The position numbers were made by a program, and so were the translations under genes. Of a stretch of 64,000 bases of DNA, positions 8,140-36,753 are shown piece after piece. Position 1 is the first letter of the stretch. Every line of letters begins with the position of its first letter. Source of the stretch: Deltaproteobacteria bacterium (GTDB lineage Bacteria; Desulfobacterota; Binatia; Binatales; Binataceae); NCBI GenBank assembly GCA_027317185.1, contig DAHVFB010000007.1, positions 1,064 to 65,063 on the forward strand, given 5' to 3'. The notes under the pieces are model-generated. The model was given only the letters and a program-made list of their open reading frames with translations, was not told the origin of the DNA and searched no databases.

Positions 8140-8153
8140 CTATGGACAGCGTT

Positions 8154-8210
8154 GGTGATGGGGTTCACCGCCACAACCGCCCTTTCCTGAGCAGGGCTGA
8201 TAACCCCTAC
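8154..8210 (+). ncRNA. fluoride riboswitch (crcB motif), copy 2
   Basis: GGUGAUGGGGUUCACCGCCACAACCGCCC-uuuccugagc-AGGGCUGAUAACCCCUAC is a near-consensus crcB motif. P1 is GGUG/CACC, P3 is GCCCU/AGGGC, and the pseudoknot is GGGGUU/AACCCC. Confidence 0.85.
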
Positions 8211-8241
8211 CGAGGTGTACGCCGGTAGGGGTTGATTTGTT
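8204..8241 (+). terminator. intrinsic terminator / expression platform of riboswitch 2
   Basis: Perfect 9-bp stem CCCCTACCG / CGGTAGGGG with a 10-nt loop, followed by TTGATTTGTT. The 5' arm overlaps the pseudoknot strand. Confidence 0.7.
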
Positions 8242-18667: not shown

Positions 18668-21165
18668 CCTCGATGCCGGAAGCAGCGCCGCAGCTCTCCA
18701 ATATCGCGGGTGACGCACTCCGCCACTATGACCATCTCAAACTCGAGATTGCGGCGATCGGGCAAGCGGCGATGCTTCAGTGCGCGAAGGATAAGGACGA
18801 GGAAGGCGAACGCGCTTTCCAGCGGTTGCTGGCGCGATTGGCGGAGGACCGCTTCAACCTTGCTGTGGTGGGTCCTTTCAGCCGGGGTAAGAGCAGCCTG
18901 ATGAACGCAATTCTCGGCTTCGATGGTTTGCCGACCGGCCTTCTTCCGCACACTTCCGTTATCACGACGGTCAGTTATGGACCACACGAACGAGTTCTGG
19001 TTCGCTGCGAGGGGTGGTCGCTTCCCCAGGAGATTCGACTGGATGGGCTCGCGGAGTACGTTACTGAACGCGGAAATCCGGGAAATCGGCGGCGGGTGAT
19101 GCAGGCGGAGATCGAACTGCCCGCTGAGATTCTCCGCCACGGCCTCCATTTCATCGATACGCCCGGTGTTGGTTCCGCGATCGTTGCAAACACCGAGACA
19201 ACGGACCGATTCCTCCCGGAGCTTGATGCGGCGATATTCGTCTCCAGTTTCGATTTTCCGCTCAGCGAGATCGATATCGAGTTTTTCCGAAAGGTTCGCG
19301 GGGCCGTCGGCGTCGTGTTCTTGGTGCTGAACAAACTTGATCTGGTCTCGGAGTCAGAGGCAGAAGAAGTAGTGAGATTCGTCCGCGAACGGCTCGACCG
19401 TGAACTGGGTATTGGGCGCTACGCGCTTTTCGCGGTTTCAGCCAAGCGCGGGTTAGAGGCGAGACTGCATGGAGACTCGAACGCTCTGTCCCAGTCGGGG
19501 TTGACCGAATTGGAAGCGGCGCTGGCGGCGTTCATGGCCGGCGATAAGACGCGCCAGTTGGCCGTGCGCGTGATGGACCGCCTCGTAACCCTGCTGCAAC
19601 GCGAGGTCACGCATGGCGGGTTCTCACTTGATCCAAAGCGGTCGCCTGGGCAGGTCTCCCAAGCCCTCGCCGGGTTCGATGAAAAGACGGCCGTCCTCAA
19701 AGCGCGGCGCGCGGAGCTCGTGAACCGCCTTGAAACGCTTGGCAATGATGCGTTGCGTGCCGTTGAGCGTCGTCTCGACTCCGCGTTCACGAACCTCAAG
19801 CAAAGCGCAGCTCATAAATTCACGCCGGACTTTCTCGCCGGTCGAATATTCTCCAGGCCGAATGCCTTCGATGCGTTCGCGCGCAATGTGCCGGCGTTTT
19901 GTGAGCGCGCTCTCACGCGCGAGTTACGAGTTTACGAGGCAGCCCTGAATGAGCATTTGGACCGGAGCGCCGGTCCGGTACGCTCGGAAATCCTTGCGCT
20001 ACCCGACGAACTCTTCGATATCGCGACGAATGGTAACGGAGGCGCTCGCGAGTTATCAGAGCTCTCCGCACAAGAGCGCGAAGCCGCACCACCATCGGTG
20101 GAAATCGCAGGGATCGCACGCGTCGAGTGGAGACCGCGGCTGCCGTGGTGGATATACCTGGCGCCACTGCGCTGGTCTTCGGCGGCGATGAAAAGAACAT
20201 TTGCCGTTGCGCTCGGCGAGTTGCTCGCGCAGTACCGATCCCGCATCGATGCGTCGATCCGCATCGACATGAACGAATATGCGGAGAAACTGGGCCGCGA
20301 GATTGAAAAAACAATCGACGGTCGAGCGGCTCGCGTCAGGAAATTACTCGCGTCGGGAGGTTTCGCACAGAATCGCAAGGTGTTCGAAGCGCTGCTGGAT
20401 CGGGCCAGAGATCTGCGTGGACAATTTGAAGATAAGGGAGACTGCCGATCGCGGTCTGAGGAGGGCGACCTCGGTGGCTCCGACGCAGTCGCTGCAAGTT
20501 CCGTGGCTTCCGTCGGCAGTGCGCATGGGTGTCCCGTCTGTCGTGCAGTCATCCGGACAGTTTTCGATTACCTGAGCAAGCTGCAATATGAATTGAGCAT
20601 CGACGCCGACGCTCAACACGAACACGCCGAAAGCGGCGGCTTCTGTTCAGTACACACGTGGATTTACTCCAGTATGACCTCGCCGGTAGCAATCTCGCGG
20701 GCCTATCCGCCACTGCTTGACTCGCTTGCCACGCGGCTGAAACGTGCCGCGCGTGATGCGGTCTCGGTCGAAGAACTGAACCGGAAAATCCGCGATCTAT
20801 CGCCTTCGCCGGAGAGCTGTAGAGTCTGCGCGGTCGCGCATCACGCGACCGATCAAGCGGTCACGGATATCGTCCGGATTCTCGACCCAGACGGACGCAG
20901 CGAGGCGCCGACCTTATGCTTGCCTCACTTGGCGATTGCACTTCAGCTCGGATCAGATTTGAAGAGCGCCCATCTGCTATCCACACAATGTGCGCGCGCT
21001 CTGCTCCGGGATGCCGATGACATGCGCCATCACGCTCTGAAGCACGACGCGATCCGGCGAGGCCTGATGACGACGGACGAGCGTGATGCGCATCAGGCCG
21101 GCCTCAGAAGATTGGCCGGCAACATGCTGCTGACATTGCCACCCCGTGGTGATGATCGGCTTTGA
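18664..21165 (+). CDS. bacterial dynamin-like GTPase with C-terminal double Cys3His module
   Basis: G1 GPFSRGKSSLMNAILG, G3 FIDTPGVGS, G4 LNKLD. C-terminal CPVC..CSVH and CRVC..CLPH. Confidence 0.8.
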   Translation: MTSMPEAAPQLSNIAGDALRHYDHLKLEIAAIGQAAMLQCAKDKDEEGERAFQRLLARLAEDRFNLAVVGPFSRGKSSLMNAILGFDGLPTGLLPHTSVITTVSYGPHERVLVRCEGWSLPQEIRLDGLAEYVTERGNPGNRRRVMQAEIELPAEILRHGLHFIDTPGVGSAIVANTETTDRFLPELDAAIFVSSFDFPLSEIDIEFFRKVRGAVGVVFLVLNKLDLVSESEAEEVVRFVRERLDRELGIGRYALFAVSAKRGLEARLHGDSNALSQSGLTELEAALAAFMAGDKTRQLAVRVMDRLVTLLQREVTHGGFSLDPKRSPGQVSQALAGFDEKTAVLKARRAELVNRLETLGNDALRAVERRLDSAFTNLKQSAAHKFTPDFLAGRIFSRPNAFDAFARNVPAFCERALTRELRVYEAALNEHLDRSAGPVRSEILALPDELFDIATNGNGGARELSELSAQEREAAPPSVEIAGIARVEWRPRLPWWIYLAPLRWSSAAMKRTFAVALGELLAQYRSRIDASIRIDMNEYAEKLGREIEKTIDGRAARVRKLLASGGFAQNRKVFEALLDRARDLRGQFEDKGDCRSRSEEGDLGGSDAVAASSVASVGSAHGCPVCRAVIRTVFDYLSKLQYELSIDADAQHEHAESGGFCSVHTWIYSSMTSPVAISRAYPPLLDSLATRLKRAARDAVSVEELNRKIRDLSPSPESCRVCAVAHHATDQAVTDIVRILDPDGRSEAPTLCLPHLAIALQLGSDLKSAHLLSTQCARALLRDADDMRHHALKHDAIRRGLMTTDERDAHQAGLRRLAGNMLLTLPPRGDDRL

Positions 21166-24868: not shown

Positions 24869-25136
24869 CCAGTTCGCCTGGGGATGCGGATCGCTGGACC
24901 TGGAGGCGCAAATAAATCAATGGATCGCCGGTCCCTTTCACGAGCATTGCGCGTTCGATTCGCATAGCTATCTCAACCCGGACCGCGATGCACAGGAATA
25001 TGGTCGCTGGACGCTGCGCAGCTCAGGTGCAGTGGTGCTTATACCACGCGAGCCGCTGATTCGAGGTGCGCAGTATTCGGTCTCGATTACCGTGCAAGGA
25101 CATACCTACGCATGGACATTCAGGATTGCCGGTTGA
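24753..25136 (+). CDS. ORF in the +1 frame that plausibly encodes the true C-terminal domain of the FHA protein
   Basis: Balanced composition. Overlaps the FHA ORF by about 115 nt in another frame. Confidence 0.35.
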   Translation: MTRFGSAIRSGDSLGAATHGEDPAKPGYTSGGSSVAENSQFAWGCGSLDLEAQINQWIAGPFHEHCAFDSHSYLNPDRDAQEYGRWTLRSSGAVVLIPREPLIRGAQYSVSITVQGHTYAWTFRIAG

Positions 25137-25161: not shown

Positions 25162-25386
25162 CTAGCGTCTTTGGTAAAGTCCGCCGCCGATGAGGATAAC
25201 GCCTAAGATTAGTACGCCAGCGCCCAATGCTGGAGGAACCATGTGCGTCGATTTCTCGGTGCTCTGGACTTTAACGGCGCCGAGATTTACCACGTCCCTG
25301 GTATGCGAGGTTGAAAACTCCGGAATCACGAGTCCTAAAATCCCTAACAGCGCGAACAGCGCACCCAGCCATACGATTGATTTCAT
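25162..25386 (-). CDS. small 2-TM membrane protein
   Basis: MKSIVWLGALFALLGILGLV .. GAGVLILGVILIGGGLY. Last gene of the minus-strand cluster. Confidence 0.45.
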   Translation of the reverse strand: MKSIVWLGALFALLGILGLVIPEFSTSHTRDVVNLGAVKVQSTEKSTHMVPPALGAGVLILGVILIGGGLYQRR

Positions 25387-25579
25387 GAGTTTTACCTCTC
25401 GTTCCGGCCTCGGCCGCAAAAGTAATAGCAATTGATTCTACCATCAAGACCGCGAGCGCGATCCAACGACGAAGCGCGAAAAAAAATGGCAACCTCCCGC
25501 TCTTGGGCGGGCTCCGGCGGCGGATCATGCGGGCCGACACTTTGTCGGGTTTTATGCCGACCCGATCGTCTCGAGCGGC

Positions 25580-26272
25580 CTACGGTGAGGCGGTCTTGCG
25601 GATGTCCGAGGCCACGACCTCCGGAGCGATCGACATCCCGTGGTACTGACGCACCATCTGGCCGTTGCTGCCAATCAGGTAGAGCGCGAAGACGTGGGTC
25701 AGTTCGTCCTGCTCGTCTTCGTGCGGAACATTGTAGACGGCGAGCACCCGGTCGACCTGGTCGGGCGGGCCGGTCAGAAACAGCCAGCCGTTGGCGTCGA
25801 CACCCTCTTTCTTCGCATAGGCGAGCAGTTGCGGCGGCCGATCTTCGGCCGGGTCGGTGGTGATCGAGACCATCGTCACCCGCGCAGCGGCATCGCTGCC
25901 GAGATTGTCCGCGACCTGCCGCATCTTGGCGGTCAGCATCTCGCAGACGCCGCGGCACGAGGTGTGGATAAAGCTGACCAGGACGATCTTGCCCTTGAGT
26001 GACGCGAGCGATACCGGATGGCCGTTCTGATCGATCAGCTTCGCCGCCGGCAGCCAATCCCTGGGTTCGCTTGCCCCAGGCGCAGACGGCGTGACCGCCT
26101 CCGCACCGGCCCGCGCCGGCGGCCCGCCGATCGCGATTGCGATTAGCGCTCCCGCGCATACTCGGGCGATCAGTCCCCGCCAGTGACGGCGCCTCGCGAC
26201 GCTGCGTGGTGCTGCGCCCTGGAATGCGATCGGCTGGGTCAATGCTGCGCGTGGCATGACTAATCCTCTCAC
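25580..26272 (-). CDS. SCO1/SenC family copper chaperone (thioredoxin fold, CxxxC)
   Basis: SFIHTSCRGVCEMLT plus a downstream His. N-terminal membrane anchor. Confidence 0.85.
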   Translation of the reverse strand: MRGLVMPRAALTQPIAFQGAAPRSVARRRHWRGLIARVCAGALIAIAIGGPPARAGAEAVTPSAPGASEPRDWLPAAKLIDQNGHPVSLASLKGKIVLVSFIHTSCRGVCEMLTAKMRQVADNLGSDAAARVTMVSITTDPAEDRPPQLLAYAKKEGVDANGWLFLTGPPDQVDRVLAVYNVPHEDEQDELTHVFALYLIGSNGQMVRQYHGMSIAPEVVASDIRKTASP

Positions 26273-26348
26273 AATTCCGGGGTTCCGACTAACGACGCCC
26301 GTTTCCGCCGATTACCATCGGCGCGATGCTCTGTGCGGGCCACGCCTG

Positions 26349-27917
26349 TTAAAGATTTTTCTTTGCGCATTCGCCGGCAATATAGTCGGCCTGCCGAATC
26401 GCCAGCGTCACGATCGTCAGCGTCGGATTTTCCCCCGCGCTGGTGGTGAATTGGCTGCCATCGGAAATGAACAGGTTCTTCAGATCGTGGGTCTGTCCCC
26501 ACTTGTTGCAGACGCCATCGCGCGGACTTTCGCTCATCCGGCAGGTGCCGAGATTGTGCGTCGACGGATAGGGCGGCGTCTCGATCGTGCGGATCGCGCC
26601 GACCGCGTCGTAGACCGCAGCGCCGCGCTTATAGCCATACGCGCGCATCGCCAGGTCGTTGGGATGATCGTCGTAATGCACGTTCGGAATCGGCAAGCCG
26701 AACTGATCTTTTTCCGTCGGATTGAGCGTGACCGCGTTGCTCTCCTGCGGCATATCCTCGCCGACGATCCACATCCCGGCCATGTTGTTATGCTGATCGA
26801 GCATCCCGGCGTAATCGCGGCCCCACGCGCCGGGATTCAGGAACGCGGCGGTGAACGGCAGCCCCAGCGAGATCGTCTCCATCTCGAAACCGCCGGCGAA
26901 GCCCCGGCTCGTGTCGAGCCCCGATTCGTCCTGAATAATTCCCGCCATCACGGTGCCGCGATACATATGCACGGGCTTTTTGAAAATCGCGAAGACCGAT
27001 CCGGTGGTATGCCGCATGTAGTTCTTGCCAACCTGGCCCGACGAATTGGCCAGCCCCGACGAGTAGGTCGAGGTTGCCGAGTTGAGCAGCAGCCGCGGAC
27101 TTTCGATCGAGTTGCACGCGACGCATACGATTCGCGCCTTCTGCACGTTGTGCTGGCCGTTCGCGTCGGCGTAGAGCACGCCCGTCGCCTTGCCGTTTTT
27201 GTCGGCGAGAATCTGCAGCGCCTGCGATTGCGGCCGCAAGTCGAGCTTGCCGGTCGCTTCGGCCTTGGGAATCTCAGTGTAGAGCGTTGACCATTTCGCG
27301 CCCGACTTGCATCCCTGGAAGCAAAACCCCAACTGCCAGCACGACGATCGATCGTCGCGCGGCCGGCTGTTGATCGCCATCCGCCCGGTATGCACGGTCT
27401 TGTAACCGACCCGCGTCGCCCCGTTGTACATCACCTTGAAGTTATTATTGCCGGGCAGACCGGGAATATCGTTGGTCCGCGTCACCCCCATCTTGTCTTC
27501 GGCCTTGGCATAGTACGGCGCGAGATCCGCAAGCCCGATCGGCCAGTCGAGCAGGTTGGCGCCGGTGATATTCGAGTAGTTAGTCTTCGCCTTGAACTCA
27601 TGCTCTTGCAGGCGCAACGAGGCGCCCGCCCAATGCACCGTGGTGCCGCCGACCGTTTTGCAAATCCACGCCGGCAGGTTCGGAAAATCCTTTGCCACGC
27701 GCCAACTGCCCGAGGTCGTGCGCTTGTCGAGCCACGCCAACTGGTTGAACGCGAACCATTCGTCGTTGTGAAAAGTGGCCGAGGATTGGCGCTGGCCGGC
27801 TTCGAGCAATACTACTTTCAAGCCCTTTTGCGTAAGCTCGTTGGCGAGCGTACCGCCGCCGGCGCCAGAACCGATAATCACCACTACTGAGTCATCGCCT
27901 GAATCAAAGCGCGCCAC
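26349..27917 (-). CDS. GMC-family FAD-dependent oxidoreductase (large subunit of a membrane-associated dehydrogenase)
   Basis: N-terminal VVIIGSGAGGGTLANEL. C-terminal GMC signature (GENPTLTIVTLA). Confidence 0.9.
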   Translation of the reverse strand: MARFDSGDDSVVVIIGSGAGGGTLANELTQKGLKVVLLEAGQRQSSATFHNDEWFAFNQLAWLDKRTTSGSWRVAKDFPNLPAWICKTVGGTTVHWAGASLRLQEHEFKAKTNYSNITGANLLDWPIGLADLAPYYAKAEDKMGVTRTNDIPGLPGNNNFKVMYNGATRVGYKTVHTGRMAINSRPRDDRSSCWQLGFCFQGCKSGAKWSTLYTEIPKAEATGKLDLRPQSQALQILADKNGKATGVLYADANGQHNVQKARIVCVACNSIESPRLLLNSATSTYSSGLANSSGQVGKNYMRHTTGSVFAIFKKPVHMYRGTVMAGIIQDESGLDTSRGFAGGFEMETISLGLPFTAAFLNPGAWGRDYAGMLDQHNNMAGMWIVGEDMPQESNAVTLNPTEKDQFGLPIPNVHYDDHPNDLAMRAYGYKRGAAVYDAVGAIRTIETPPYPSTHNLGTCRMSESPRDGVCNKWGQTHDLKNLFISDGSQFTTSAGENPTLTIVTLAIRQADYIAGECAKKNL

Positions 27918-27933
27918 TACACAGACCTCCGCG

Positions 27934-28473
27934 TCACGAAGCTTTGGGACTGGCCGAGGCCGGCGGATCCGGCAGCCATTTCAGATCGTTGAAGCCATGA
28001 TGGAGGTAGCCGCCAAACGGATATGACGCTCCTGGATAGCCAAAGCGTTTCCACACGGCGGGATTATTGTAGAGCGATACCAGCTCGATACCGCGGACCT
28101 TCTGAAAGAACGGCGTCGTCTCGATCCGCTTTAGCCCGGCCACCTGCTCGGCGCTCGAGCGCGCGGCGAATTTCTTGGCGCCGCCGGCGTCAAGCTGCGC
28201 GATCCCGTCATGCATCATTTGCGCACTGGCCGGCGTGGCCTGGGCCTCCTGATCGAGATCGTGCACCACCTTGATGTAGTAGCTATCGGCAAGGCGATCG
28301 TGCGGAAAAATCTCCCGCACCATCTTGAGCAGCGTCTCGCCCTCATGCTCGCTGAAGGCCTTCAGTTCGGCAGTCCACGAAGCCGCGAAACTGACCGCCG
28401 CGGCCCCCGATGTGGCAATCGCCACGCCAGCTACCGCGATTGCCCCCTTCTGCAAGAATTCGCGTCGCTTCAT
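27934..28473 (-). CDS. Tat-signal small subunit (gluconate 2-dehydrogenase subunit-3 family)
   Basis: MKRREFLQKGAIAVAGVA twin-arginine signal. Size and position match subunit 3 of three-component GMC dehydrogenases. Confidence 0.7.
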   Translation of the reverse strand: MKRREFLQKGAIAVAGVAIATSGAAAVSFAASWTAELKAFSEHEGETLLKMVREIFPHDRLADSYYIKVVHDLDQEAQATPASAQMMHDGIAQLDAGGAKKFAARSSAEQVAGLKRIETTPFFQKVRGIELVSLYNNPAVWKRFGYPGASYPFGGYLHHGFNDLKWLPDPPASASPKAS

Positions 28474-28611
28474 CTCCGCTGCGTCCTTCCCTGCGCCACA
28501 TCCTTGCCCTGCGCAGGCGCTTCATCGGCCCCGCGGGCCAATGCCCTCATCGTTACGAAATGCCAGTTCGCCGCGAACTGCCTATCGCCGCAAAATGCCG
28601 GCCACCATGCA

Positions 28612-29064
28612 TTACTTACCCAGCTTGCGCACGCGCTCGACCAGCGCGGCGACTACCGCCGGTTCATTTTCGAGGTCCGGATTCGAGGCCATCTCGGCAC
28701 TCAAGCCCACCGCCTTGCCACCCTGGACGATCGCCTGAGCGATGCGCGCGTCGGTCACCGAACGCTGCCATTTGCGGCTGTGGAAATTGACTGGCCGCGG
28801 GTTCAGATTGGCCGCCGCCGGACCGTTGCCGCGACCCTGGTCGCCATGGCACGTGGCGCATCGCGAGGTAAAGATCTCCGCCGCCTGCGCGCGCGCATCC
28901 GCGGTGACCGCGGCCGGCGGCGCGCTATCATGATTATCCGTCGAGGCCGCCTGCGCGAGCATTTGATAGGAATTCGCCGCCCGACTGACTAACGGCGCAG
29001 CGCCCGCCGCGGTCATCGCCATGACTGCGGCGACGAAGCCATAACCGAACCTACGCGCTTTCAT
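28612..29064 (-). CDS. c-type cytochrome (class I, CATCH haem site)
   Basis: Signal peptide plus CATCHGDQGRG. Confidence 0.85.
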   Translation of the reverse strand: MKARRFGYGFVAAVMAMTAAGAAPLVSRAANSYQMLAQAASTDNHDSAPPAAVTADARAQAAEIFTSRCATCHGDQGRGNGPAAANLNPRPVNFHSRKWQRSVTDARIAQAIVQGGKAVGLSAEMASNPDLENEPAVVAALVERVRKLGK

Positions 29065-29093
29065 CCGCTACGCGCGCCCTGCCGTCCGCCCGA

Positions 29094-30134
29094 TCAAGGT
29101 ATCAGTACCGCGCGCCCTTTGATCTGGCCGTTCTTAAGATCCTGCAGGGCGGTATTAGCTTCGCTGAGACGGTATTCTCTGGTCGTCAGATTGACTAATC
29201 CGCGATCCGCCAGCGCCATCAGTTCGACCAGGTCTGAGTAGGTACCGACCAGGTTGCCGACGATCGTCTTCTCAGTGACGATCATCTCCATCGTCGCGAT
29301 CTCAACTTTGCCGCCGTAGCCGACGATATAGTAGTAACCGGCGTTGCAGGTCATCTTGAGCCCGTTGGCCACCGCGGCCCCTTCGCCGACAAAATCGATC
29401 ACCGCCTGCGCGCCCGCGCCGCCGGTCAGTGCGAGCACCGCATCGACCTCGTTGCCGTCGGCGCGGACCGTATGCGTCGCGCCGCACTCACGCGCGAGCT
29501 TCAGCGCGGCTTCCGATCGGTCAACCACGATCACATCGGCGGCACACAGCGCCTTGAGCACCTGTATACCTATATGTCCGAGTCCGCCCGCGCCGATCGC
29601 GACCGCACAGTCGCCCGGCAGCAGATGCGCCGCGGCCTTCTTCACCGCATGGTACGCCGTTAGGCCGGCGTCGGCGTAAGGCGCGACGTCCTTGGGTGCG
29701 AGTGTGCGCGGCAGCTTGATCAGTGCGCGCTCGGCGGTCTTGAGCAACTCGGCGTATCCGCCGTTCGAATCGATTCCCGGAAATGCGCCGCCCGCATGCA
29801 TATCGTTGCCGCGCCGCGCCGCCAGCGTCTCGCCATGGCTCAACAGCGGATGACAGATCACCGGGTCGCCGACCTTCACGCCCGTGACGCCCGCGCCGAC
29901 GGCCTCGATCCAGCCGGCGTTTTCGTGGCCCATGATGTACGGCAGTTGGACCGGCACGCGATCGCGCCACAGCCCCTCGATCACGTGGAGGTCGGTGCGG
30001 CATACGCCGGCGCCGCCGACCCGCACGATCACGTCGAACAGGCTCTCGATCTTCGGTTCGGGCACGTCCTTGTAGACCACGAACTCGGGCCGTTCGAGCT
30101 TCAGATCGTACTGGTTTAGAACTGCTGCCTTCAT
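29094..30134 (-). CDS. zinc-dependent alcohol dehydrogenase (MDR family)
   Basis: GVCRTDLH, GHENAGWIEAVG, GAGGLGHIGIQ. Confidence 0.9.
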   Translation of the reverse strand: MKAAVLNQYDLKLERPEFVVYKDVPEPKIESLFDVIVRVGGAGVCRTDLHVIEGLWRDRVPVQLPYIMGHENAGWIEAVGAGVTGVKVGDPVICHPLLSHGETLAARRGNDMHAGGAFPGIDSNGGYAELLKTAERALIKLPRTLAPKDVAPYADAGLTAYHAVKKAAAHLLPGDCAVAIGAGGLGHIGIQVLKALCAADVIVVDRSEAALKLARECGATHTVRADGNEVDAVLALTGGAGAQAVIDFVGEGAAVANGLKMTCNAGYYYIVGYGGKVEIATMEMIVTEKTIVGNLVGTYSDLVELMALADRGLVNLTTREYRLSEANTALQDLKNGQIKGRAVLIP

Positions 30135-30339
30135 TTAATTATAACCGCGGCTTCGCAGACTCGCCCGCACCCCATGCCCGCTTCGCCCGATGCGAACTTC
30201 ACTCGCCTACGCGCCATGACCAACCGCGGCTTTGACTGGGATGCGGACGAGTCCGCGAAGTCGCGCTTTAGGTCTCGCCACACCCCATGCCTGACCGCGG
30301 TGCACCTGCGTTTCGCTCAATAGCCACTCCGCGCTCGCT

Positions 30340-31632
30340 CTACGGCAGGTACTGCGGCTGAAATTCGGTCGGGATCAGCACCGATTTGACGGTCACCAGA
30401 TCGTATTTTCTCCGCTCGCCCTGAAAATGCACGAGCCCCGCGATTAGCTGCTGCGGATCGTGCAACGGAATCAGCCGCTCGTCGTTGAATACGTCGCCGC
30501 TCATCGTGAGCTTCACCGCGCGGGTCTCGCCCGGCGCGATCGGTGTATTGGGCTCGACGTCGAGTTTGCCGGTATAGTCGGCCGGTCCCGCCTGCGCGAT
30601 CGCCGCCGCGTCGCCATTGACGAACGTCGTCATCGCCATCGAGTATTCGGTCAGCGTCAGCGGCATATCGCTGATATTCTTGATCTGGGTATTAAGGATC
30701 AGCGTGCTGGTCTTCTCGTCATAGGTTGCGCCGGTGCCGCGCACCGTCGCCAGATTCACGCCAGGCGCAGCCGAGACCGGCTCAAAGCGATCGGTCTGCT
30801 GCGGCAGCCGCACTGGAAATTTTGCCGCCATGTAGACCCAGCCACCGACCATCATCGCGACGGTGATACCCGCCAGCACGCTCATCCAGAAATGATCGCG
30901 CGGTGTGATCAATCCAATATCCGGCGCGTCGTCGTTGATCGGCAGTTGAATCGTCACCGCCAGGCGGGTCACCGTGCGCTTGGGCACCGTCCAGTAGAGC
31001 ATCCAGATGACGCCGATGATGAATCCGGCGAGCGACCACCACCAGACGAACGCACCGCCGTAATGCTCGAGGTTAACTTTCTGCCCATCGAGCAGCGACA
31101 CGTCGAAGCGAAATGGCGTCGCACTGGGCTCGACCGTGACCCATTCGCCCGGGCCGATCAGCGTGCCGGTGCCCTGGATCGCAATCCCGGGATGGACGTG
31201 CCAGCGGCCCGGATTACGTCCGCGCATCACCATATTGAAATTGTAGACGCCGCCCTTTTCCACGAAGATCGATCCCATGTCGGGTTCGCCATTGACCGTG
31301 CGATCGGCCAGCACAAATACCGGGCCGGGCACCACCGGCGTGATATACGCCGTGGCCGGCGGATCGAGCGTGTAGGGCCAGGTCTCGAGGATCTTGAGGC
31401 TCCCGGTGATCGTGACCGGATCGCCAACCTTGATCACGGTCGGCGAGATATGGACATTGAAGAACGCGACCGTCAGGTCCTTGAGAAACGGCTCGTCGGC
31501 CGCTTCGCCATGGGCCCAGGCGCCGCGTGCGCCGCACAGGATAATCAGAACGGCCGCCGTCAGACCGGCCGCAAATCGCAATCGCATCTGCGCACTCCTC
31601 ACCGGGCGGCGGCCCATAACGGGCCGCGCCAC
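30340..31632 (-). CDS. pmoB: copper membrane monooxygenase subunit B (PmoB/AmoB/HmoB family)
   Basis: Signal peptide then HGE.. (the N-terminal His ligand), RNPGRWHVH (HxH), GTGTLIGPGEWVTVEP, DGQKVNLEHY, two TM helices, and a C-terminal cupredoxin-like domain ending LIPTEF. Collinear with Methylococcus PmoB. Confidence 0.9.
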   Translation of the reverse strand: MARPVMGRRPVRSAQMRLRFAAGLTAAVLIILCGARGAWAHGEAADEPFLKDLTVAFFNVHISPTVIKVGDPVTITGSLKILETWPYTLDPPATAYITPVVPGPVFVLADRTVNGEPDMGSIFVEKGGVYNFNMVMRGRNPGRWHVHPGIAIQGTGTLIGPGEWVTVEPSATPFRFDVSLLDGQKVNLEHYGGAFVWWWSLAGFIIGVIWMLYWTVPKRTVTRLAVTIQLPINDDAPDIGLITPRDHFWMSVLAGITVAMMVGGWVYMAAKFPVRLPQQTDRFEPVSAAPGVNLATVRGTGATYDEKTSTLILNTQIKNISDMPLTLTEYSMAMTTFVNGDAAAIAQAGPADYTGKLDVEPNTPIAPGETRAVKLTMSGDVFNDERLIPLHDPQQLIAGLVHFQGERRKYDLVTVKSVLIPTEFQPQYLP

Positions 31633-31651
31633 TGCGCAATCGGGCGGATTC

Positions 31652-31918
31652 TTATCTACTAATCGCCCGTCGTTTCAGGTTTTGTGACTTCGAGACCGGC
31701 GGCTCGCGCCGCGTCGGCCACAGAATCATGATCCAGTAACAGATGATTCCGAGCCCCACCGACAGGCCTACCGGCGGTCCCAGCTCCCCCGGACCCGCCA
31801 TCCCGCCGTGAGCGCTCGCCGACGGAGCGAATAGGCCGATCCACGAGATCGCGAGCGCCATTCGCCGCGCCCATCGGTAATTATGCGTTCTTCGTGTCAT
31901 CGCCTGCCAGATACTCAA
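31652..31918 (-). CDS. small predicted membrane protein encoded between pmoA and pmoB (about 60-88 aa, 2 hydrophobic helices)
   Basis: Same-strand ORF filling the unusually long pmoA-pmoB spacer (MALAISWIGLFAPSASA .. VGLSVGLGIICYWIMILW). The ends are Arg-rich, so coding status is uncertain. Confidence 0.35.
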   Translation of the reverse strand: MSIWQAMTRRTHNYRWARRMALAISWIGLFAPSASAHGGMAGPGELGPPVGLSVGLGIICYWIMILWPTRREPPVSKSQNLKRRAISR

Positions 31919-31939
31919 TTGACGCCAGTTACTGAATAC

Positions 31940-32737
31940 TCAGATCGTCTTGATAAAACGCCCGATCGGCCACACCGCGAGATAGCGGCCGATGAATTGT
32001 CCGATCCAATAGCCTATCACCGCCATGGTCCCGCCAAATACCAGTGAGACGTACTGAGTCTCACCCAAAAAGCTCCGCAATGCGCCACGCTCGATATGCC
32101 GCATGTACTCGGGCGTCTGCGAACGGATATAGCCGATGCCCTGCACGTCCGACACCGTCATCACGTGATGCATGAACACGGCGGGCTGCAGAAACGGAGC
32201 GAGCGGTATGTAATTGAACGCCCAGACCATAAAGGCCCACGTCGCCCCTCCGATCAGCGATGTGAGCACAAAACTTCGCGTCTTCATCAATAGCCAGTCC
32301 AGGATGATCGCAGCCGGCACGGTCGAAATCGGCCAGACGAAATTCAGCGGATAGGTCTCGGCCACGTGCCATTGAAAATAGCGCCCGATCCACGAGGCCA
32401 GGAACAGGCACACGCAGGTATAGGTCGCGCCGGTCGGAAAGCGCCACGCCACCCATTGAATCCATTGCAGCGCCGACGGAATGATAATCGTTGCGAAGGC
32501 CGTGATCACCGGCCACCACTGCGCGTCTTTCCAATCGGTCCAGAAATCCCAGTCGCCGGCGAACAGCAGCTTGGTGATATCCGCCGCCCCCGCCACGATA
32601 AATATCGCCGTGACCCAGAAGACCACGTCCCAGGTCCGATCGATATACTTGTATTTCGCGTTCAGCAGGTCGCGCAGTTCGAGCCGCCGCTGGCGTTCAG
32701 CCGCGGACATCGTTAGCGCAGAAGGTGTCGACGCCAT
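31940..32737 (-). CDS. pmoA: copper membrane monooxygenase subunit A (PmoA/AmoA/HmoA family)
   Basis: GDWDFWTDWKDAQWWPVI, TPEYMRHIERGALRSF. Likely start at MSAAERQ (about 32710). Confidence 0.9.
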   Translation of the reverse strand: MASTPSALTMSAAERQRRLELRDLLNAKYKYIDRTWDVVFWVTAIFIVAGAADITKLLFAGDWDFWTDWKDAQWWPVITAFATIIIPSALQWIQWVAWRFPTGATYTCVCLFLASWIGRYFQWHVAETYPLNFVWPISTVPAAIILDWLLMKTRSFVLTSLIGGATWAFMVWAFNYIPLAPFLQPAVFMHHVMTVSDVQGIGYIRSQTPEYMRHIERGALRSFLGETQYVSLVFGGTMAVIGYWIGQFIGRYLAVWPIGRFIKTI

Positions 32738-32793
32738 CTATTCTCCCCCAAGCTCCCCAAGCTATTGCGCGCCGGTCCCTCCCGGCGCATTAC

Positions 32794-33600
32794 TCAACCA
32801 GCGGCCGCACTATGGATTGGCGCTTCCTCGCTGGCCTGCGCCGACTTCTCGATCTGATAGAGCCGCAGGATACTCTCGCCCCAGACCGCGAACATGCCGC
32901 TCGCCAGCCATCCGTAGGCCACAAACGGCCAATGGAACGGCACCGAGAAAAATTCTTCCGATAGCCACAGGCTGTGGCCCCATTCGTTGAACGCGACCTG
33001 CATGAACTCGAGCACCGCCGCCGAGATCAGCAGGAAAAACGACCACGGAAAGCCCTTGTCGGGACTGTACAGCGCGGGTATCCGGTAGCGTCCGTAGATA
33101 TACGCGCCCAGCGCGAGCACCACCGAGAGCGGAAAGAAAAAGTAGAACATCGGGATATGCGTCGGCGTCAGCGCCGTATCGCGCACCATCGTCTGATGCC
33201 ACGCGCCGTCCCAGTTCGGCCAGAAACTCGCCTCGATGTAGAGCGACAGGCTGGTCGCGCCGATAATCCCCCACAGCACCGCGATCCGCCGCACCTCTTC
33301 GCGCGGCGCCGCCTGCGGATTTTCGAGCGCACGGCCGGTCCGGATCAGCCATCCGTACCACAGCCCGCAGAAGATCCCGTTGGTCAACAGTTCCGCCCAG
33401 AACAGCGCCCGGTAATGCGTCGTGAAGGCATGCGTCGCCGAATTCAGGCCAATCGTGAAGGCGTATTTGTAGTCGAAGAGCCAGAGAAACAGGTTCGCCG
33501 CCAGCAGCGCCGCACAGCCGACAAACAGCGTCTTCCAGCCTCCGAGCCAATCCGTCGGGCCGCGGCCGCCCGCTTCATCCAGTCCCCGTGTCGAGTCCAT
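32794..33600 (-). CDS. pmoC: copper membrane monooxygenase subunit C (PmoC/AmoC/HmoC family)
   Basis: GAWHQTMVRDTALTPTHI .. NEWGHSLWLSEEFFSVPFHWPFVAYGWLA. Collinear with PmoC, including the conserved Asp/His metal-site region. Confidence 0.9.
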   Translation of the reverse strand: MDSTRGLDEAGGRGPTDWLGGWKTLFVGCAALLAANLFLWLFDYKYAFTIGLNSATHAFTTHYRALFWAELLTNGIFCGLWYGWLIRTGRALENPQAAPREEVRRIAVLWGIIGATSLSLYIEASFWPNWDGAWHQTMVRDTALTPTHIPMFYFFFPLSVVLALGAYIYGRYRIPALYSPDKGFPWSFFLLISAAVLEFMQVAFNEWGHSLWLSEEFFSVPFHWPFVAYGWLASGMFAVWGESILRLYQIEKSAQASEEAPIHSAAAG

Positions 33601-33624
33601 CCAGATCTTCCCCTGTGACCAGAG

Positions 33625-33672
33625 ATTGACTTATCAATCAAGGGCTTACACCGCATTGACGCGCGGCGTCAA
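33625..33672. promoter_or_regulatory. two palindromes upstream of pmoC (GATTGA-ctta-TCAATC and TTGACGC-gcg-GCGTCAA)
   Basis: Read from the sequence, in the 120-bp pmoC leader region. Candidate operator sites. Confidence 0.3.
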
Positions 33673-33723
33673 CCATTGCGATTGCCCTCGTCCGGCGCGA
33701 TCGTCCCAATCGGCGCTGCGCGT

Positions 33724-34227
33724 TCAGGCCGGCGGACGCGGGCGGCTCGCGATCTCTTTCGATTCCGCCACCTTGAGCTTGCGCGCGGCCGCCGCCCGCC
33801 GCCGCGCGTAGACCGCCGGGTCGGCCAATGGCGAATGGTCATGCCCATGCGGATGCGGTTGATTCTTGGCCGCGGGCACGCCGAGTTGCGCTGAGCGCTC
33901 GGCGCGCGCCGCCACCGTATCGTCGTATTCCGCACCGCGGCCATGCTTATAGGCCGCAAAACGCGACGCCGACTTGTCGTCCATCCAGCACAGCCGCGCG
34001 CCCGGCGGCACCTTGAGGCTGGTCACTTCCGGCCGCGACGGATCGCTCCGTCCCACAGCCGGTGGCGGACTTCCACCGCCCATCATGAAGCTCACCGCCG
34101 AGATTATCCGCCGCGCCGGCCGCGCGCATCGCGGACATGGCCGCGCGCGCATCCGCGCCGCACTAAGCGGCACCAGCACCTCGAAAGTTACTCCGCAGGG
34201 CTCACAGCGGCATTCATACAACGGCAT
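33724..34227 (-). CDS. FmdB-family zinc-ribbon putative regulatory protein with Pro/Ala-rich C-terminal extension
   Basis: MPLYECRCEPCGVTFEV .. RPCPRCA. Confidence 0.55.
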   Translation of the reverse strand: MPLYECRCEPCGVTFEVLVPLSAARMRARPCPRCARPARRIISAVSFMMGGGSPPPAVGRSDPSRPEVTSLKVPPGARLCWMDDKSASRFAAYKHGRGAEYDDTVAARAERSAQLGVPAAKNQPHPHGHDHSPLADPAVYARRRAAAARKLKVAESKEIASRPRPPA

Positions 34228-34310
34228 CGCAATCTCTTTACGCGCTCGCGGCGCGGCGCAGGCCATTCGATCGACGCGCGCCGCGCCGCCCCATCGAATC
34301 GATTCGAACC

Positions 34311-35087
34311 CTATTCAACCAGATGCGGATGTTCCTTCCAGTCGTCGGGGTCGTGCGTGATCCAGACCGTTGCGCCATGCATATCGCGAATCGCCTTCAC
34401 CCGCCGGATCGATTTCACCGACTGAATCGGGTCGGTGTCGATCCCCATCGTCGCCTCCTGAGTAATCGCGGCGCGCAGATGCACGGTGTCGCCGGTCAGC
34501 AGGAACTTGCGATTGGACAGGTTGACCAGTAGCGAGCATTCGCCGGGCGTATGGCCGGGGGTGTAGAGAAATTTGAGCGCGCCGTCGCCGAACAGGTCGA
34601 GGTCCTGGTCAAACTCAAGCCAGTTGTACGCGCGGGTCGGCAGAAAATCGTTCAGGATAAACGCCCAGCGCCGATCCGGGTCCGGCCAGTAGGCGTATTG
34701 CAGTTCGTTGGCGCCGACGATAAACGTGGCCTTCGGGAAATACGTCAGGCCGCCCGAATGATCCAGATGCGAATGTGACAGGATGACGTATTTCACGTCG
34801 GACGCCTTATAGCCGACGCCCGCGATCTGCTTGTCGAGCGTGTCCGACTTGCTCCATTTGATCGGCAGCGCCTGCGCCACTTCGCCCCAGTAGCCCGCCG
34901 CGTCGTCGATAATCTTGGGGTTACATCCGCTGTCGAACAGCACCAGCCCCTTGGGATGTTCGATCAGGAACGAGGGGCACGGCAACTGCAACAGGCTCGC
35001 GTCGCCGCCATGCATCAGGAGCGACGCCGGCGCGGTCAGTTCCGCGCCCGGCAGGGCCCACATCTTCTTCGCTTTGCCGTCAGCCAT
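34311..35087 (-). CDS. MBL-fold metallo-hydrolase (N-acyl-homoserine-lactonase-like)
   Basis: HSHLDHSGG (HxHxDH) and downstream His/Asp ligands. Confidence 0.8.
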   Translation of the reverse strand: MADGKAKKMWALPGAELTAPASLLMHGGDASLLQLPCPSFLIEHPKGLVLFDSGCNPKIIDDAAGYWGEVAQALPIKWSKSDTLDKQIAGVGYKASDVKYVILSHSHLDHSGGLTYFPKATFIVGANELQYAYWPDPDRRWAFILNDFLPTRAYNWLEFDQDLDLFGDGALKFLYTPGHTPGECSLLVNLSNRKFLLTGDTVHLRAAITQEATMGIDTDPIQSVKSIRRVKAIRDMHGATVWITHDPDDWKEHPHLVE

Positions 35088-35193
35088 TGGTCCACTCCAA
35101 TCGATATTTCGTTAAGTACAATTGCCGCAATTGCCACGCACGGCGCATCGTCCGCCAGATTGCCGCCAAGCTAGATCGGGCCGTCCGACACTG

Positions 35194-36753
35194 TCAAGCA
35201 AAGGCCGCCGCGACGATCCCGCGCGCCTCGAGATACGCCGCGATCGTCGCCGCCCGCGCCTGCGCATCGGCCAGCGCCACGTAACCGTCCGGCCGCACCA
35301 GGTAGAGCGCGTTTTGCCGCAGTCCGGCCCGGCCCATCGCCGCGCGCCATCGAAATTGATGCAACGGCAGCTTGCGCTCGTCGCACACCGCGCGGATCTC
35401 GGGCGCCGCCTCACCATAGACATGGACTTGCCACGCGATCGCCGCCAGCGGCGTGAAGTTATCGCCCGCGACGCCCTCGCGCTCCGCCTCCACCCACGGC
35501 AAGCGGTCGCCGCCGTATACGGCTCCCGCATTCCCCTCACTCAGGAGGCTGGTGCGATAGCTCACGGCGGTCTGCGAGATCGTGCGAAACATGAAGCGGC
35601 GCACCGCCGCTACCCTGAATAGCCACGGAATCACCCGCGGCACGATCTGAAGCCGCACGCGCCGCGCGATCGCGCCACGGTTGGTAACCGCGCTGAACGC
35701 CCGATCGGTGGTCGCGACCAGCCGCCGCGCAAAGGCGCTTCGCTCCGGCTCGTAGCTGTCCAGGATCGCCGCGCCCGCCCGTCCCTGGATCACCGCCGCG
35801 AGTTTCCACGACAGGTTCACCGCGTCGCCGATCCCGGTGTTCATCCCCTGTCCGCCCACCGGACTATGGATATGCGCGGCGTCACCCAGGATGAATGCGC
35901 GCCCCTTGCGGAAATAATCCGCCACCCGATGATGCACGCGGTAGGTCGAAAACCAGTTCACCCGCTCGACCTCGATCTTCATCTCCGCGATCACGCGATT
36001 GCTCACGTCCGCCCATCCGAGCCCCTCGCGCCGATCCTCGGCCGATTCCTGCAGCGTGCCGATCAGCCGCGCATGCCCGTCGGCCTTGAGCGGAAAAGCC
36101 GCGAGAAAATCGCTCGCGTCGAGCCCGACATGCAGCTCGCCGTTGATCGCGGGTCCACGCGCCGCCACGTCGGCGACGTAGTAAAGATGTGCATACGAGC
36201 CGCCCGGAAAGCCGATCCTGAGTCCCTCGCGGACCGTCGAATGGGCCCCGTCGCATCCCGCGAGGTACGCCGCCGTGCAAGTCTCGAGCGCGCCATGAGG
36301 CCCCTTGAGCCGCGCCACCACGCCGGCCGCCATCTCCTCGAATTCCATCAGCTCCGTGCACCGCTCGACCGTGACGCCGGCCGCGCCGAGGCGCTCGACC
36401 AACAGCCGCTCGTGCTCGTCCTGGGGAAAGATAATCGGATACGAAAACGGGCTCATGCCCGCGCCCAGTTCGCCGATAATCGCCCGCGCCGTATGCGCGC
36501 CGGCGACCCAGAAGTTGACCGCCGCGACCTTCCGTCCGCGCGCGACCACCTCGTCGGCAATTCCGATCTGATTGTAAAACTCGAGCGTGCGCGCCTGCAC
36601 CACGAGCGCCCGCGAGGTCGTCCCCGGCTCGGCCGTCTTATCGACGATCCTCACGCGCACGCCAATCCGCGTGAGCCACATCGCCATCACCAGCCCGGTC
36701 GGCCCCGCGCCGACGATCAATACGTCCACGGCGTCCGTCCCGCTCATCGTCAA
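35194..36753 (-). CDS. FAD-dependent aromatic-ring (phenol-type) hydroxylase / monooxygenase
   Basis: VLIVGAGPTGL, DG.HS.VR and GDAAH motifs. 519 aa with a C-terminal thioredoxin-like tail typical of the PheA/TfdB class. Confidence 0.85.
   Translation of the reverse strand: MTMSGTDAVDVLIVGAGPTGLVMAMWLTRIGVRVRIVDKTAEPGTTSRALVVQARTLEFYNQIGIADEVVARGRKVAAVNFWVAGAHTARAIIGELGAGMSPFSYPIIFPQDEHERLLVERLGAAGVTVERCTELMEFEEMAAGVVARLKGPHGALETCTAAYLAGCDGAHSTVREGLRIGFPGGSYAHLYYVADVAARGPAINGELHVGLDASDFLAAFPLKADGHARLIGTLQESAEDRREGLGWADVSNRVIAEMKIEVERVNWFSTYRVHHRVADYFRKGRAFILGDAAHIHSPVGGQGMNTGIGDAVNLSWKLAAVIQGRAGAAILDSYEPERSAFARRLVATTDRAFSAVTNRGAIARRVRLQIVPRVIPWLFRVAAVRRFMFRTISQTAVSYRTSLLSEGNAGAVYGGDRLPWVEAEREGVAGDNFTPLAAIAWQVHVYGEAAPEIRAVCDERKLPLHQFRWRAAMGRAGLRQNALYLVRPDGYVALADAQARAATIAAYLEARGIVAAAFA

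Follow-up and report, generated by a model that had tools for sequence, protein, structure and literature searches.

The 64,000-nucleotide (nt) window analysed here, a stretch of contig DAHVFB010000007.1 in assembly GCA_027317185.1, carries a run of ten genes on its minus strand. Read in the direction of transcription, they encode PmoC, PmoA, the small protein OrfX, PmoB, a zinc-dependent alcohol dehydrogenase (Zn-ADH), a class-I cytochrome c, a small subunit with a twin-arginine translocation (Tat) signal, a flavoprotein of the GMC family, Sco1 and a small membrane protein (Table 1). The order pmoC-pmoA-orfX-pmoB had been proposed earlier from the letters of the DNA (hereafter the sequence-only reading), together with the identities of the Zn-ADH, cytochrome c, Tat small subunit, GMC and SCO1/SenC genes; the open reading frames (ORFs) lie where that reading had put them, and profile and motif matches agree with the identities. 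Pfam profiles assign seven of the ten proteins above threshold, and OrfX, the 179-amino-acid (aa) small subunit and the terminal small membrane protein match no Pfam or NCBIfam family above threshold. The host, an uncultured soil bacterium, belongs to Candidatus Binataceae: the window PmoA is 99–100% identical to that of a Candidatus Binataceae metagenome-assembled genome (MAG), and the GMC protein is 100% identical to a protein of a Candidatus Binataceae MAG at NCBI. For comparison, one genome per species was scanned, which yielded 360 stretches with a PmoA relative. The best 80 of these 360 form the comparison set; nearly all are Candidatus Binatia or Binataceae MAGs or carry older “Deltaproteobacteria” labels, with PmoA identities of 74–100%. 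The genes downstream of pmoB were located in these 80 species loci by tblastn with the window proteins, and 65 of the 80 were long enough to judge whether a GMC cassette is present near pmoA.

Table 1. Features of the monooxygenase locus (positions refer to the whole window).
Feature	Position	Strand	Characteristics
Ten same-strand genes	25162-33600	minus	PmoC through small membrane protein
pmoC-like subunit C	32794-33600	minus	268 aa; PF04896, E 3e-44
pmoA-like subunit A	31940-32737	minus	265 aa; PF02461, E 5e-58
orfX	31652-31918	minus	88 aa from TTG start; between pmoA and pmoB; family profile
pmoB-like subunit B	30340-31632	minus	430 aa from GTG start, signal peptide; PF04744, E 2e-77
Structured spacer pmoB-adh	30135-30339	minus	205 nt; RNA fold -100.6 kcal/mol, z = -4.1
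Zn-dependent medium-chain ADH	29094-30134	minus	346 aa, cytoplasmic; PF08240 + PF00107
Monoheme class-I cytochrome c	28612-29064	minus	150 aa, signal peptide; PF00034, E 1.5e-6; single CATCH motif
Tat-signal small subunit (GmcB-like)	27934-28473	minus	179 aa, MKRREFLQ...; Tat motif KRREFLQ; sub-threshold PF12318, E 0.009
GMC flavoprotein large subunit	26349-27917	minus	522 aa, no signal peptide; PF00732 + PF05199
Sco1/SenC copper chaperone or thiol-disulfide protein	25580-26272	minus	230 aa; PF02630, E 9e-25
Small two-transmembrane-helix protein	25162-25431	minus	74-89 aa; no family match; module membership not established
Sigma-70-like promoter (predicted) upstream of pmoC	33645-33672	minus	-35 TTGACG 33667-33672; -10-like TGTAAG 33645-33650

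With subunits C, A and B encoded together in the order C-A-(X)-B, the locus is a member of the copper membrane monooxygenase (CuMMO) superfamily. The homology of the three larger genes to PmoC, PmoA and PmoB, a claim of the sequence-only reading, is borne out by the matches to PF04896, PF02461 and PF04744 (E 3e-44 to 2e-77), and PmoB aligns to PDB chain 3rgb_A with E 1e-57. The same reading had regarded the metal sites as preserved, and alignment to solved chains of particulate methane monooxygenase (pMMO) agrees for all three of them. The CuB ligands His41, His135 and His137 of PmoB correspond to His33, His137 and His139 of M. capsulatus, while alignment to PDB PmoC shows the Asp/His/His set of CuC (WDGAWHQ...TPTH) and the Asn/His/His set of CuD (NEWGHS...PFHW) to be kept. 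All subunits stay below the equivalog cut-offs for pMMO (TIGR03078, TIGR03079 and TIGR03080; 146.7 vs 280.6, 198 vs 394.9 and 182.1 vs 318.15 bits) and for bacterial ammonia monooxygenase (AMO; NF041557, NF041640 and NF041641; 206.5 vs 290, 284.3 vs 336 and 165.5 vs 319 bits). No methanol dehydrogenase or other methanol oxidation gene was found among the cluster and the scanned flanking genes of the window, and no PmoD gene adjoins pmoB within the cluster. Going by profile scores and tree position (see below), the cluster encodes a CuMMO of the hydrocarbon monooxygenase (HMO)-like superclade, not a pMMO or AMO, and methane and ammonia appear unlikely as substrates.

The window PmoA is 74–90% identical to that of the 79 other Binatia species, 62–71% to Caldinitratiruptor, Carbonactinospora, Lentzea and Dormibacterota sequences, 41–44% to the characterised HmoA of strain NBB4 and 37% to PmoA of M. 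capsulatus. In a neighbour-joining (NJ) distance tree, the deep-node bootstrap values of which are unreliable owing to rooting, it falls within Binatia, which share a superclade with Caldinitratiruptor, MAGs of Dormibacterota and some members of the Actinomycetota (Lentzea, Carbonactinospora). A long branch parts this superclade from the HMO group of Mycolicibacterium NBB4 and Rhodococcus, and the window PmoA does not lie inside the NBB4-type clade. No Methylacidiphilum sequence is present among the 120 PmoA relatives listed. The sub-threshold subunit scores and the low identity to M. capsulatus agree with the earlier view that the enzyme is neither a classical methanotroph nor a nitrifier one.

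The nearest PmoA sequences are from Binatia MAGs and share the CAxB gene order, which places the window in the “putative pmoA Binatales” clade. Murphy et al. (2021) describe CuMMOs in Binatota, including the CAxB order with x as a hypothetical protein, report their affiliation with actinobacterial butane monooxygenases and note conserved CuB histidines. A 2024 study and the 2026 Microflora Danica preprint put Binatales pmoA-like genes among the hydrocarbon monooxygenases and leave the substrate open; the preprint also finds methanol-oxidation and C1-assimilation modules incomplete or missing in Binatia MAGs with TUSC-type genes. Earlier genomic studies had suggested some Binatota as methanotrophs. 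The CuMMO clade is thus already published, and the substrates proposed here are read from sequence. The sequence-only reading had counted this CuMMO among poorly characterised kinds, which is correct in so far as the clade has never been characterised and needs the qualification that the clade, CAxB order included, was described in 2021 and 2026. What goes beyond the searched literature is OrfX, the linkage of the GMC cassette and the likeness of the GMC protein to acetol dehydrogenase (AceDH). The searchable text of Murphy et al. (2021) and of the Microflora Danica preprint reports neither the GMC/cytochrome c/Sco cassette nor an oxidation of acetone or other C3 compounds.

The genes for the small subunit, the GMC protein and Sco1, usually accompanied by that for cytochrome c, accompany pmoCAXB in the same orientation in 43 of the 65 judgeable loci. 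The cassette lies downstream in 22 loci (CAXB-[adh-cyt]-small-gmc-sco) and upstream in the other 21 (cyt-small-gmc-sco-CAXB). As the linkage outlasts this rearrangement, the two gene orders provide strong evidence of functional coupling, and we hold with high confidence that the CuMMO and the genes downstream of it form a functional unit. In relatives, the gap from pmoB to the next gene, be it adh or the small subunit, amounts to 16–39 nt, and the GMC protein is 76–88% identical across Binataceae, i.e. better conserved than PmoB. Synteny in related genomes and the short gaps consequently lend weight to the module that the sequence-only reading had drawn, with the exception of its last member. 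The small membrane protein recurs only on a near-identical contig, was detected in none of the other comparison loci, and is not established as part of the module.

Upstream of pmoC, an alignment of 19 Binataceae species shows an invariant TTGAC with unconserved flanks, followed about 17 nt downstream by TATAAC, TAAAC or TGTAAG. This is the sole conserved promoter-like element of the cluster, and a scan for terminators and promoters inside the cluster gave no signal above background. We infer that the conserved TTGAC/-10-like element acts as a promoter and that the cluster is co-transcribed. Two perfect palindromes are located in the same region (33624-33672), TTGACGC-N3-GCGTCAA with the -35 element inside and GATTGA-N4-TCAATC; they are possible operator sites. 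Inspection by eye for a sigma-54 promoter upstream of pmoC gave a weak GG-N10-GC match, on which no claim is made. At the pmoB-adh junction, the spacer of the window folds into a hairpin of about 24 bp, and a long spacer is shared with the closest relative (locus L001) only. Because relatives have 16–39 nt at this junction, the comparison identifies the 205-nt spacer as a lineage-specific insertion, which could be an inserted element or a site of mRNA processing or stability.

The GMC large subunit aligns with the alpha subunits of fructose dehydrogenase (FDH) and FAD-dependent glucose dehydrogenase (FAD-GDH) with E 1e-45 and roughly 25% identity, and its structural model (pLDDT 71) matches the same subunits in Foldseek with a TM-score of about 0.8. 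The iron–sulfur motif C193-x5-C199-x3-C203 is kept as in FDH and FAD-GDH. The likeness to Gluconobacter FDH and Burkholderia FAD-GDH thus comprises a homologous large subunit, the C-x5-C-x3-C motif and a Tat small subunit that exports it. Conversely, FDH and FAD-GDH possess a membrane triheme subunit, whereas the window encodes a monoheme cytochrome of 150 aa and a substrate pocket that, going by residue numbering, would be closer to AceDH than to the sugar enzymes. The notion of a three-component membrane dehydrogenase, put forward by the sequence-only reading, does not survive this comparison: the adjacent cytochrome is small, has one CxxCH motif and a predicted signal peptide, and is not a membrane-bound multihaem subunit. 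The small subunit gave no PDB match and only a weak match, below threshold, to PF12318 (sorbitol-dehydrogenase small subunit). It directly precedes the GMC gene with a 16-nt gap, in the window as in loci L081, L092 and L093, the relatives with called genes, and was detected in 40 of the 43 GMC-carrying loci. Among the best 120 GMC matches listed, all are at least 76% identical, and those with a name stem from Binataceae, Binatus or Acidoferrales MAGs.

A June 2026 preprint reports the purification of GmcAB from Methylacidiphilum fumariolicum SolV and identifies it as AceDH, with a Km of 2.3 µM and no activity on methanol, 1-propanol, 2-propanol or 1,2-propanediol. According to this preprint, AceDH has a Tat beta subunit, FAD bound covalently to His91, cytochrome c as electron acceptor and a [Cu-4Fe-4S] cluster held by C187-D-Q-C190-G-F-C193-F-Q-G-C197 and Met144 of the beta subunit. 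The window GMC protein (SCWQLGFCFQGCK) and SolV AceDH (CDQCGFCFQGCT) are identical at 9 of 12 positions, the window reading C193-W-Q-L-G-F-C199-F-Q-G-C203. Residues of the same type occur at consistent offsets for the seven named active-site or FAD-linkage positions: H95, F200, H303 and M324 for His91, Phe194, His297 and Met318 of AceDH, and T447, H454 and N497 for Thr451, His458 and Asn501, where the AceDH residues were matched by published numbering and motif, not by alignment or tree. All seven are invariant in 36 homologues except F200 (35/36) and T447. The build is likewise AceDH-like, with an alpha subunit devoid of a signal peptide and a beta subunit that carries a Tat signal.

In Methylacidiphilum IT6 and SolV, gmcAB resides in the same cluster as pmoCAB3, and both are co-induced on C3 substrates. 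The window shares with this system a CuMMO clustered with a two-subunit GMC enzyme, the Tat small subunit, the GFCFQGC motif and, going by published numbering, residues of the active-site type. It differs in that pmoD, gloA, lactate dehydrogenase and PEP synthase, which the Methylacidiphilum pmoCAB3 cluster carries, are missing from the window cluster; moreover, the window CuMMO is of a different lineage, OrfX, an own cytochrome c, Sco1 and Zn-ADH are added, and the copper-cluster ligands are gone. Judging from these likenesses and differences, the cluster would be best described as a CuMMO-plus-AceDH C3 oxidation system as in Methylacidiphilum, on a different CuMMO lineage and with a copper-free AceDH cluster site.

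The remaining genes of the cassette can be placed with varying certainty. For the ADH, the best PDB matches are 1h2b (an archaeal ADH) and then 2xaa, the secondary ADH of R. ruber, and the protein is probably a secondary-alcohol dehydrogenase. It is 54–59% identical to ADHs beside related CuMMOs in Caldinitratiruptor, Carbonactinospora, Lentzea and locus L091. The four-Cys structural-zinc loop is lost in all CuMMO-linked Binataceae ADHs (window residues 97-116, LLSHGETLAARRGNDMHAGG), while its C-x2-C-x2-C-x7-C form is kept in the orthologues of Caldinitratiruptor, Carbonactinospora, Lentzea and other relatives. The cytochrome c, detected in 11 of 22 downstream-type and 15 of 21 upstream-type loci, is, by analogy with AceDH, a candidate electron acceptor of the GMC dehydrogenase. 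Sco1 shows a CRGVC motif at residue 106 and a downstream His, as befits the SCO1/SenC family, and its gene is linked to pmoCAXB in 37 of the 43 GMC-type loci. As a Sco gene also lies directly upstream of pmoC in the GMC-less loci L017, L018, L076 and L079, Sco seems tied to the monooxygenase and not to the dehydrogenase.

By analogy with Methylacidiphilum, the cluster may serve as a C3 module that leads from 2-propanol and acetone via acetol to methylglyoxal, a reading that we consider evenly poised between right and wrong. The cytoplasmic ADH would oxidise 2-propanol to acetone, or interconvert the two, and the CuMMO would hydroxylate acetone to acetol with O2; a possible start is the hydroxylation of propane to 2-propanol by the CuMMO. 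In the periplasm, the Tat-exported GMC enzyme would then oxidise acetol to methylglyoxal, with electrons passing from FAD via the Fe-S cluster to the cytochrome c encoded alongside, which would feed them into the respiratory chain. A more speculative option is that electrons from the dehydrogenase and cytochrome c return to the monooxygenase. Sco1 may serve copper insertion or thiol redox chemistry for the CuMMO. In Methylocella silvestris, deletion of the GMC gene Msil_1641 causes a build-up of acetol and abolishes growth on 2-propanol and acetone, and a 2025 paper on archaeal HMOs already classes a CuMMO as acetone-oxidising when a GMC oxidoreductase is present. The route from hydrocarbon over alcohol to aldehyde or acid, which the sequence-only reading had envisaged, fits less well: no aldehyde dehydrogenase is found in the cluster, the GMC protein is AceDH-like and the ADH is of the secondary-alcohol type.

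Gene neighbourhoods of relatives are of interest in this respect. The CuMMOs of Caldinitratiruptor, Carbonactinospora, Lentzea, a Dormibacterota MAG and others lie in sets of MimR, IclR, amidohydrolase, DUF59 and Zn-ADH genes, and the divergent Binatia loci L076 and L079 show a similar MimR/amidohydrolase/DUF59/Zn-ADH context. That accessory set is known from actinobacterial Mim clusters, which are acetone-induced and in which a di-iron monooxygenase hydroxylates acetone to acetol. The Mim (MimABCD) acetone/propane monooxygenase clusters hold a Zn-ADH (Adh1-type, 342 aa), an amidohydrolase, DUF59 and MimR, i.e. the same set as around the closest non-Binatia CuMMOs. The Mim oxygenase itself is a soluble di-iron enzyme; in the relatives the CuMMO takes its place, and the window retains the ADH alone. 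Among the Binatia loci examined, the full Mim accessory set is confined to L076 and L079; a search for Mim accessory genes and GloA in GMC-type loci returned merely a short sigma-54 activator that lacks a sensor domain, in L002, L003 and L005. With regard to methylglyoxal, L093 has a gene for a GloA-like lactoylglutathione lyase immediately ahead of its 76%-identical small-subunit/GMC pair, in L036 and L037 pmoB is immediately followed by VOC/glyoxalase genes, and a VOC/glyoxalase gene precedes the cluster in L091.

Several findings weigh against the coupling of CuMMO and cassette and against the C3 reading built on it. In 22 of the 65 species the CuMMO is present and no cassette is found within 7–10 kb, the small-subunit/GMC pair also occurs, at 76–77% identity, with no CuMMO nearby, and the ADH is found in only about 13 of the 80 loci. 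The hairpin-forming 205-nt spacer parts pmoB from adh, so that co-transcription in the window is not assured. The likeness to AceDH draws on a published 12-residue motif and residue numbers, and the copper ligands of AceDH are absent: the positions of Asp188 and Cys190 are taken by W194 and L196, and Met144 of the beta subunit has no counterpart, the C-terminal region of the small subunit being free of Met. With three copper ligands missing, a plain Fe-S cluster is expected in the window GMC protein; according to the June 2026 preprint, distant AceDHs, e.g. of Methylocella, also lack the copper-cluster motif. The 64-kb window lacks genes for glyoxalase, lactate dehydrogenase, MimR, amidohydrolase and DUF59. 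Finally, the CuMMO clade is known from its sequences alone, and its nearest characterised relative is the HMO of NBB4, an oxidiser of C2–C4 alkanes that is sister to the window superclade.

That last point leads to the rival that survives best, a C2–C4 alkane monooxygenase with terminal oxidation in the manner of NBB4 HMO or the butane monooxygenase of Nocardioides, by which an alkane would be converted into a primary alcohol and, via ADH or GMC, into an aldehyde and onward, much as the sequence-only reading had it. The NBB4-type HMO clade is the nearest characterised one in the tree and supports growth on C2–C4 alkanes, published trees put Binatales pmoA-like genes among hydrocarbon and butane monooxygenases, and GMC enzymes can be alcohol dehydrogenases. 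We nevertheless judge this rival unlikely, if worth keeping in view, since PmoA is merely 41–44% identical to HmoA, the ADH groups with secondary-alcohol dehydrogenases, and the cluster is devoid of genes for aldehyde dehydrogenase and acyl-CoA synthetase, in contrast to the clusters of NBB4 and Rhodococcus, which include an AMP-binding protein and mdo. The NBB4 hmoCAB cluster resembles the window in belonging to a sister superclade, in the order C-A-B and in a small “LAHGG” ORF with one transmembrane (TM) helix and a charged tail next to hmoB. It differs in that this small ORF follows B and lacks a signal peptide, and in that mdo, MoxR, an AMP-binding protein and SigC adjoin the cluster in place of GMC, cytochrome c and Sco.

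A monooxygenase for butanone or higher methyl ketones, alkenes or other volatiles, with the GMC enzyme acting on the matching alpha-hydroxyketone or diol, seems to us less probable still. CuMMO substrate ranges are broad, and PMO3 of Methylacidiphilum also oxidises butanone. In L093 (14592-17187), moreover, a trio of GloA, small subunit and GMC with 76% identity occurs with no CuMMO about 4 kb from acetoin-dehydrogenase-like E1/E2 genes, a context that hints at GMC enzymes of this family acting on alpha-hydroxyketones more broadly. Against this rival, no context gene in the window points to C4 or alkene (epoxide) metabolism, and the putative AceDH-like active-site residues are conserved.

That only pmoCAXB forms a unit and the downstream genes are unrelated neighbours can claim the structured spacer after pmoB, the GMC pairs found apart from any CuMMO and the 22 species with no cassette near pmoA; same-strand linkage in 43 of 65 species in two gene orders is, however, not expected by chance, the junctions in relatives measure 16–39 nt, and we regard this explanation as very improbable. 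A pMMO, with the host an unrecognised methanotroph, is the weakest candidate and may be set aside: source databases label the genes methane/ammonia monooxygenase and methanotrophy was suggested for some Binatota in earlier genomic studies, but the scores lie under the pMMO cut-offs, PmoA is 37% identical to that of M. capsulatus, no methanol dehydrogenase is found in the cluster or window, and the 2026 survey found no complete methanotrophy modules in Binatia MAGs carrying these genes and placed the genes among hydrocarbon monooxygenases. On balance, the published methanotrophy or alkane-oxidation reading of the clade and the pathway of the sequence-only reading are probably both off target.

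The second subject of this analysis is OrfX, which NCBI calls as an 82-aa hypothetical protein (IVW56_00815) and which gave no Pfam, NCBIfam or PDB match. Its predicted layout comprises a signal peptide ending in SASA|HGG, a brief stretch in the periplasm (..ELGPP..), a single TM helix (..CYWIMILWP) and a tail of basic character. A family profile matches between pmoA and pmoB in 79 of the 80 Binatia loci with a median E of 3e-24, the sole miss being a contig that ends directly after pmoA. When 1.84 billion representative proteins (50% identity) were searched exhaustively with the profile, 86 members with E <= 1e-3 came up, 41 of which reach 1e-10; a word-index search gave merely 3 proteins. 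Across the family, a basic n-region, a hydrophobic h-region and an AxA site are followed at once by an invariant His, usually as H-G-G; the C-terminal part consists of an acidic residue, G/A-P-P, one TM helix ending in Y-W-x-V-x-L-W-P and a basic tail. Columns A30, H31, P43, Y55, W61 and P62 are invariant. By the -3/-1 rule and the positive-inside rule, mature OrfX would have a periplasmic N-terminus that starts with His and a cytoplasmic C-terminus. The conserved His beside the predicted cleavage site resembles the N-terminus of PmoB (A-H-G).

Outside Binatia, the distant Caldinitratiruptor has a clear OrfX homologue in its pmoA-pmoB interval (hhalign probability 96%, E 1.5e-9), and an “Acidobacteria” MAG has an uncalled one there too. 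Of another appearance is the small ORF found after pmoB in Carbonactinospora, Lentzea, NBB4, M. dioxanotrophicus and Rhodococcus WAY2. This actinobacterial ORF lacks a signal peptide and shows the pattern LAHGG-x4-[DE][EIL], one TM helix and a charged tail. Its likeness to OrfX is confined to this motif, the two families aligning over only 13 residues with an hhalign probability of 14%, and the OrfX profile fails to detect the “LAHGG” ORFs; homology with OrfX is no more than suggestive. Two further observations concern these small genes. The metagenomic protein P0283 (248 aa) combines the C-terminal part of PmoA with an OrfX match at residues 179-222; it may be a natural PmoA-OrfX fusion or else result from a frameshift in the gene call. 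In L082, L084, L085 and L086, a second conserved gene with no family match follows the “LAHGG” ORF downstream of pmoB, multi-TM and 193–229 aa long in Carbonactinospora and Lentzea, about 115 aa in NBB4 and M. dioxanotrophicus; these genes could be further unrecognised CuMMO accessory components.

Structures of CuMMOs carry supernumerary single helices, namely AmoX/Y/Z in the archaeal enzyme, a 23-aa helix in pMMO of Methylocystis sp. Rockwell and a 46-aa ORF in AMO of N. europaea. Like OrfX, these are small single-TM proteins, bound to the core trimer and often overlooked in annotation. Unlike them, and as far as a comparison by description goes, OrfX is operon-encoded, is made with a cleavable signal peptide and, once processed, would begin with an invariant His. 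Position, conservation and predicted topology make OrfX a likely supernumerary CuMMO subunit, which would pack against the transmembrane core with its His-Gly N-terminus on the periplasmic side. In the searched literature, no paper was found that names or discusses OrfX beyond “x”.

A wider picture that joins both subjects is offered as a tentative and rather doubtful proposal. OrfX would be a copper-binding fourth subunit common to the HMO-type superclade, with a signal peptide in Binatia and as “LAHGG” in Actinobacteria. Its N-terminal His-Gly segment might extend to the periplasmic copper site in PmoB or hand copper on to PmoC. In this picture, Binataceae would possess an acetone monooxygenase that joined up with an AceDH-type dehydrogenase and its cytochrome c separately from the verrucomicrobial PMO3 system, and the abundant soil Binatales pmoA-like genes would mark a sink for acetone and 2-propanol, not methane.

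The surroundings of the cluster can be described briefly. Upstream of pmoC (33724-36753, minus strand), the genes for an FmdB-type zinc-ribbon protein, an AttM-like N-acyl-homoserine lactonase and a FAD-dependent aromatic-ring hydroxylase (PF01494) are common only to the window and its closest relative L001, and no link to the CuMMO module was found. The metallo-beta-lactamase-fold gene among them (34311-35087) was considered as a glyoxalase II that would complete a route from methylglyoxal, and rejected, being the AttM-like lactonase. At the other end, codon composition steps at about position 25000, right at the end of the CuMMO module: GC at third codon positions is 0.62–0.73 for genes at 0.5–25 kb and 0.77–0.87 from 25.5 kb onwards, and overall GC climbs from about 0.58 to about 0.65 across the boundary. 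The step could stem from a join in the assembly or from a region that is mosaic or was acquired. Further away, two fluoride riboswitches on the plus strand (8145-8216 and 15991-16051; 47.3 and 42 bits) reach Rfam gathering scores. They flank or sit within a Mrp-antiporter/complex-I-like (Ehr-type) gene cluster at about 8.3–16 kb, which includes a fused 30-kDa/49-kDa/NiFe-hydrogenase-like subunit (11433-13022). Downstream of the Ehr-like cluster, a bacterial dynamin-like GTPase of 833 aa (18664-21165, plus strand) has genes for HEAT-repeat proteins and a metallophosphoesterase on its flanks and bears no relation to the CuMMO operon.

The identity of the active copper site and the role of extra helices are debated for CuMMOs. 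OrfX is a candidate supernumerary subunit of this lineage, relatives of which can be expressed in Mycobacterium; leaving OrfX out could make a difference when the enzyme is produced in a foreign host. With a cytochrome c and Sco1 of its own, the cluster would further lend itself, in compact form, to the question of where CuMMOs get their electrons and copper from. In metagenomes of soil and sediment, Binatales pmoA-like genes are widespread, and they have been read as possible methane or alkane oxidisers. The GMC linkage in about two-thirds of the judgeable species provides a substrate hypothesis for them, namely acetone and 2-propanol via acetol; if true, the way in which Binatales pmoA-like markers are counted in methane-sink surveys would change.

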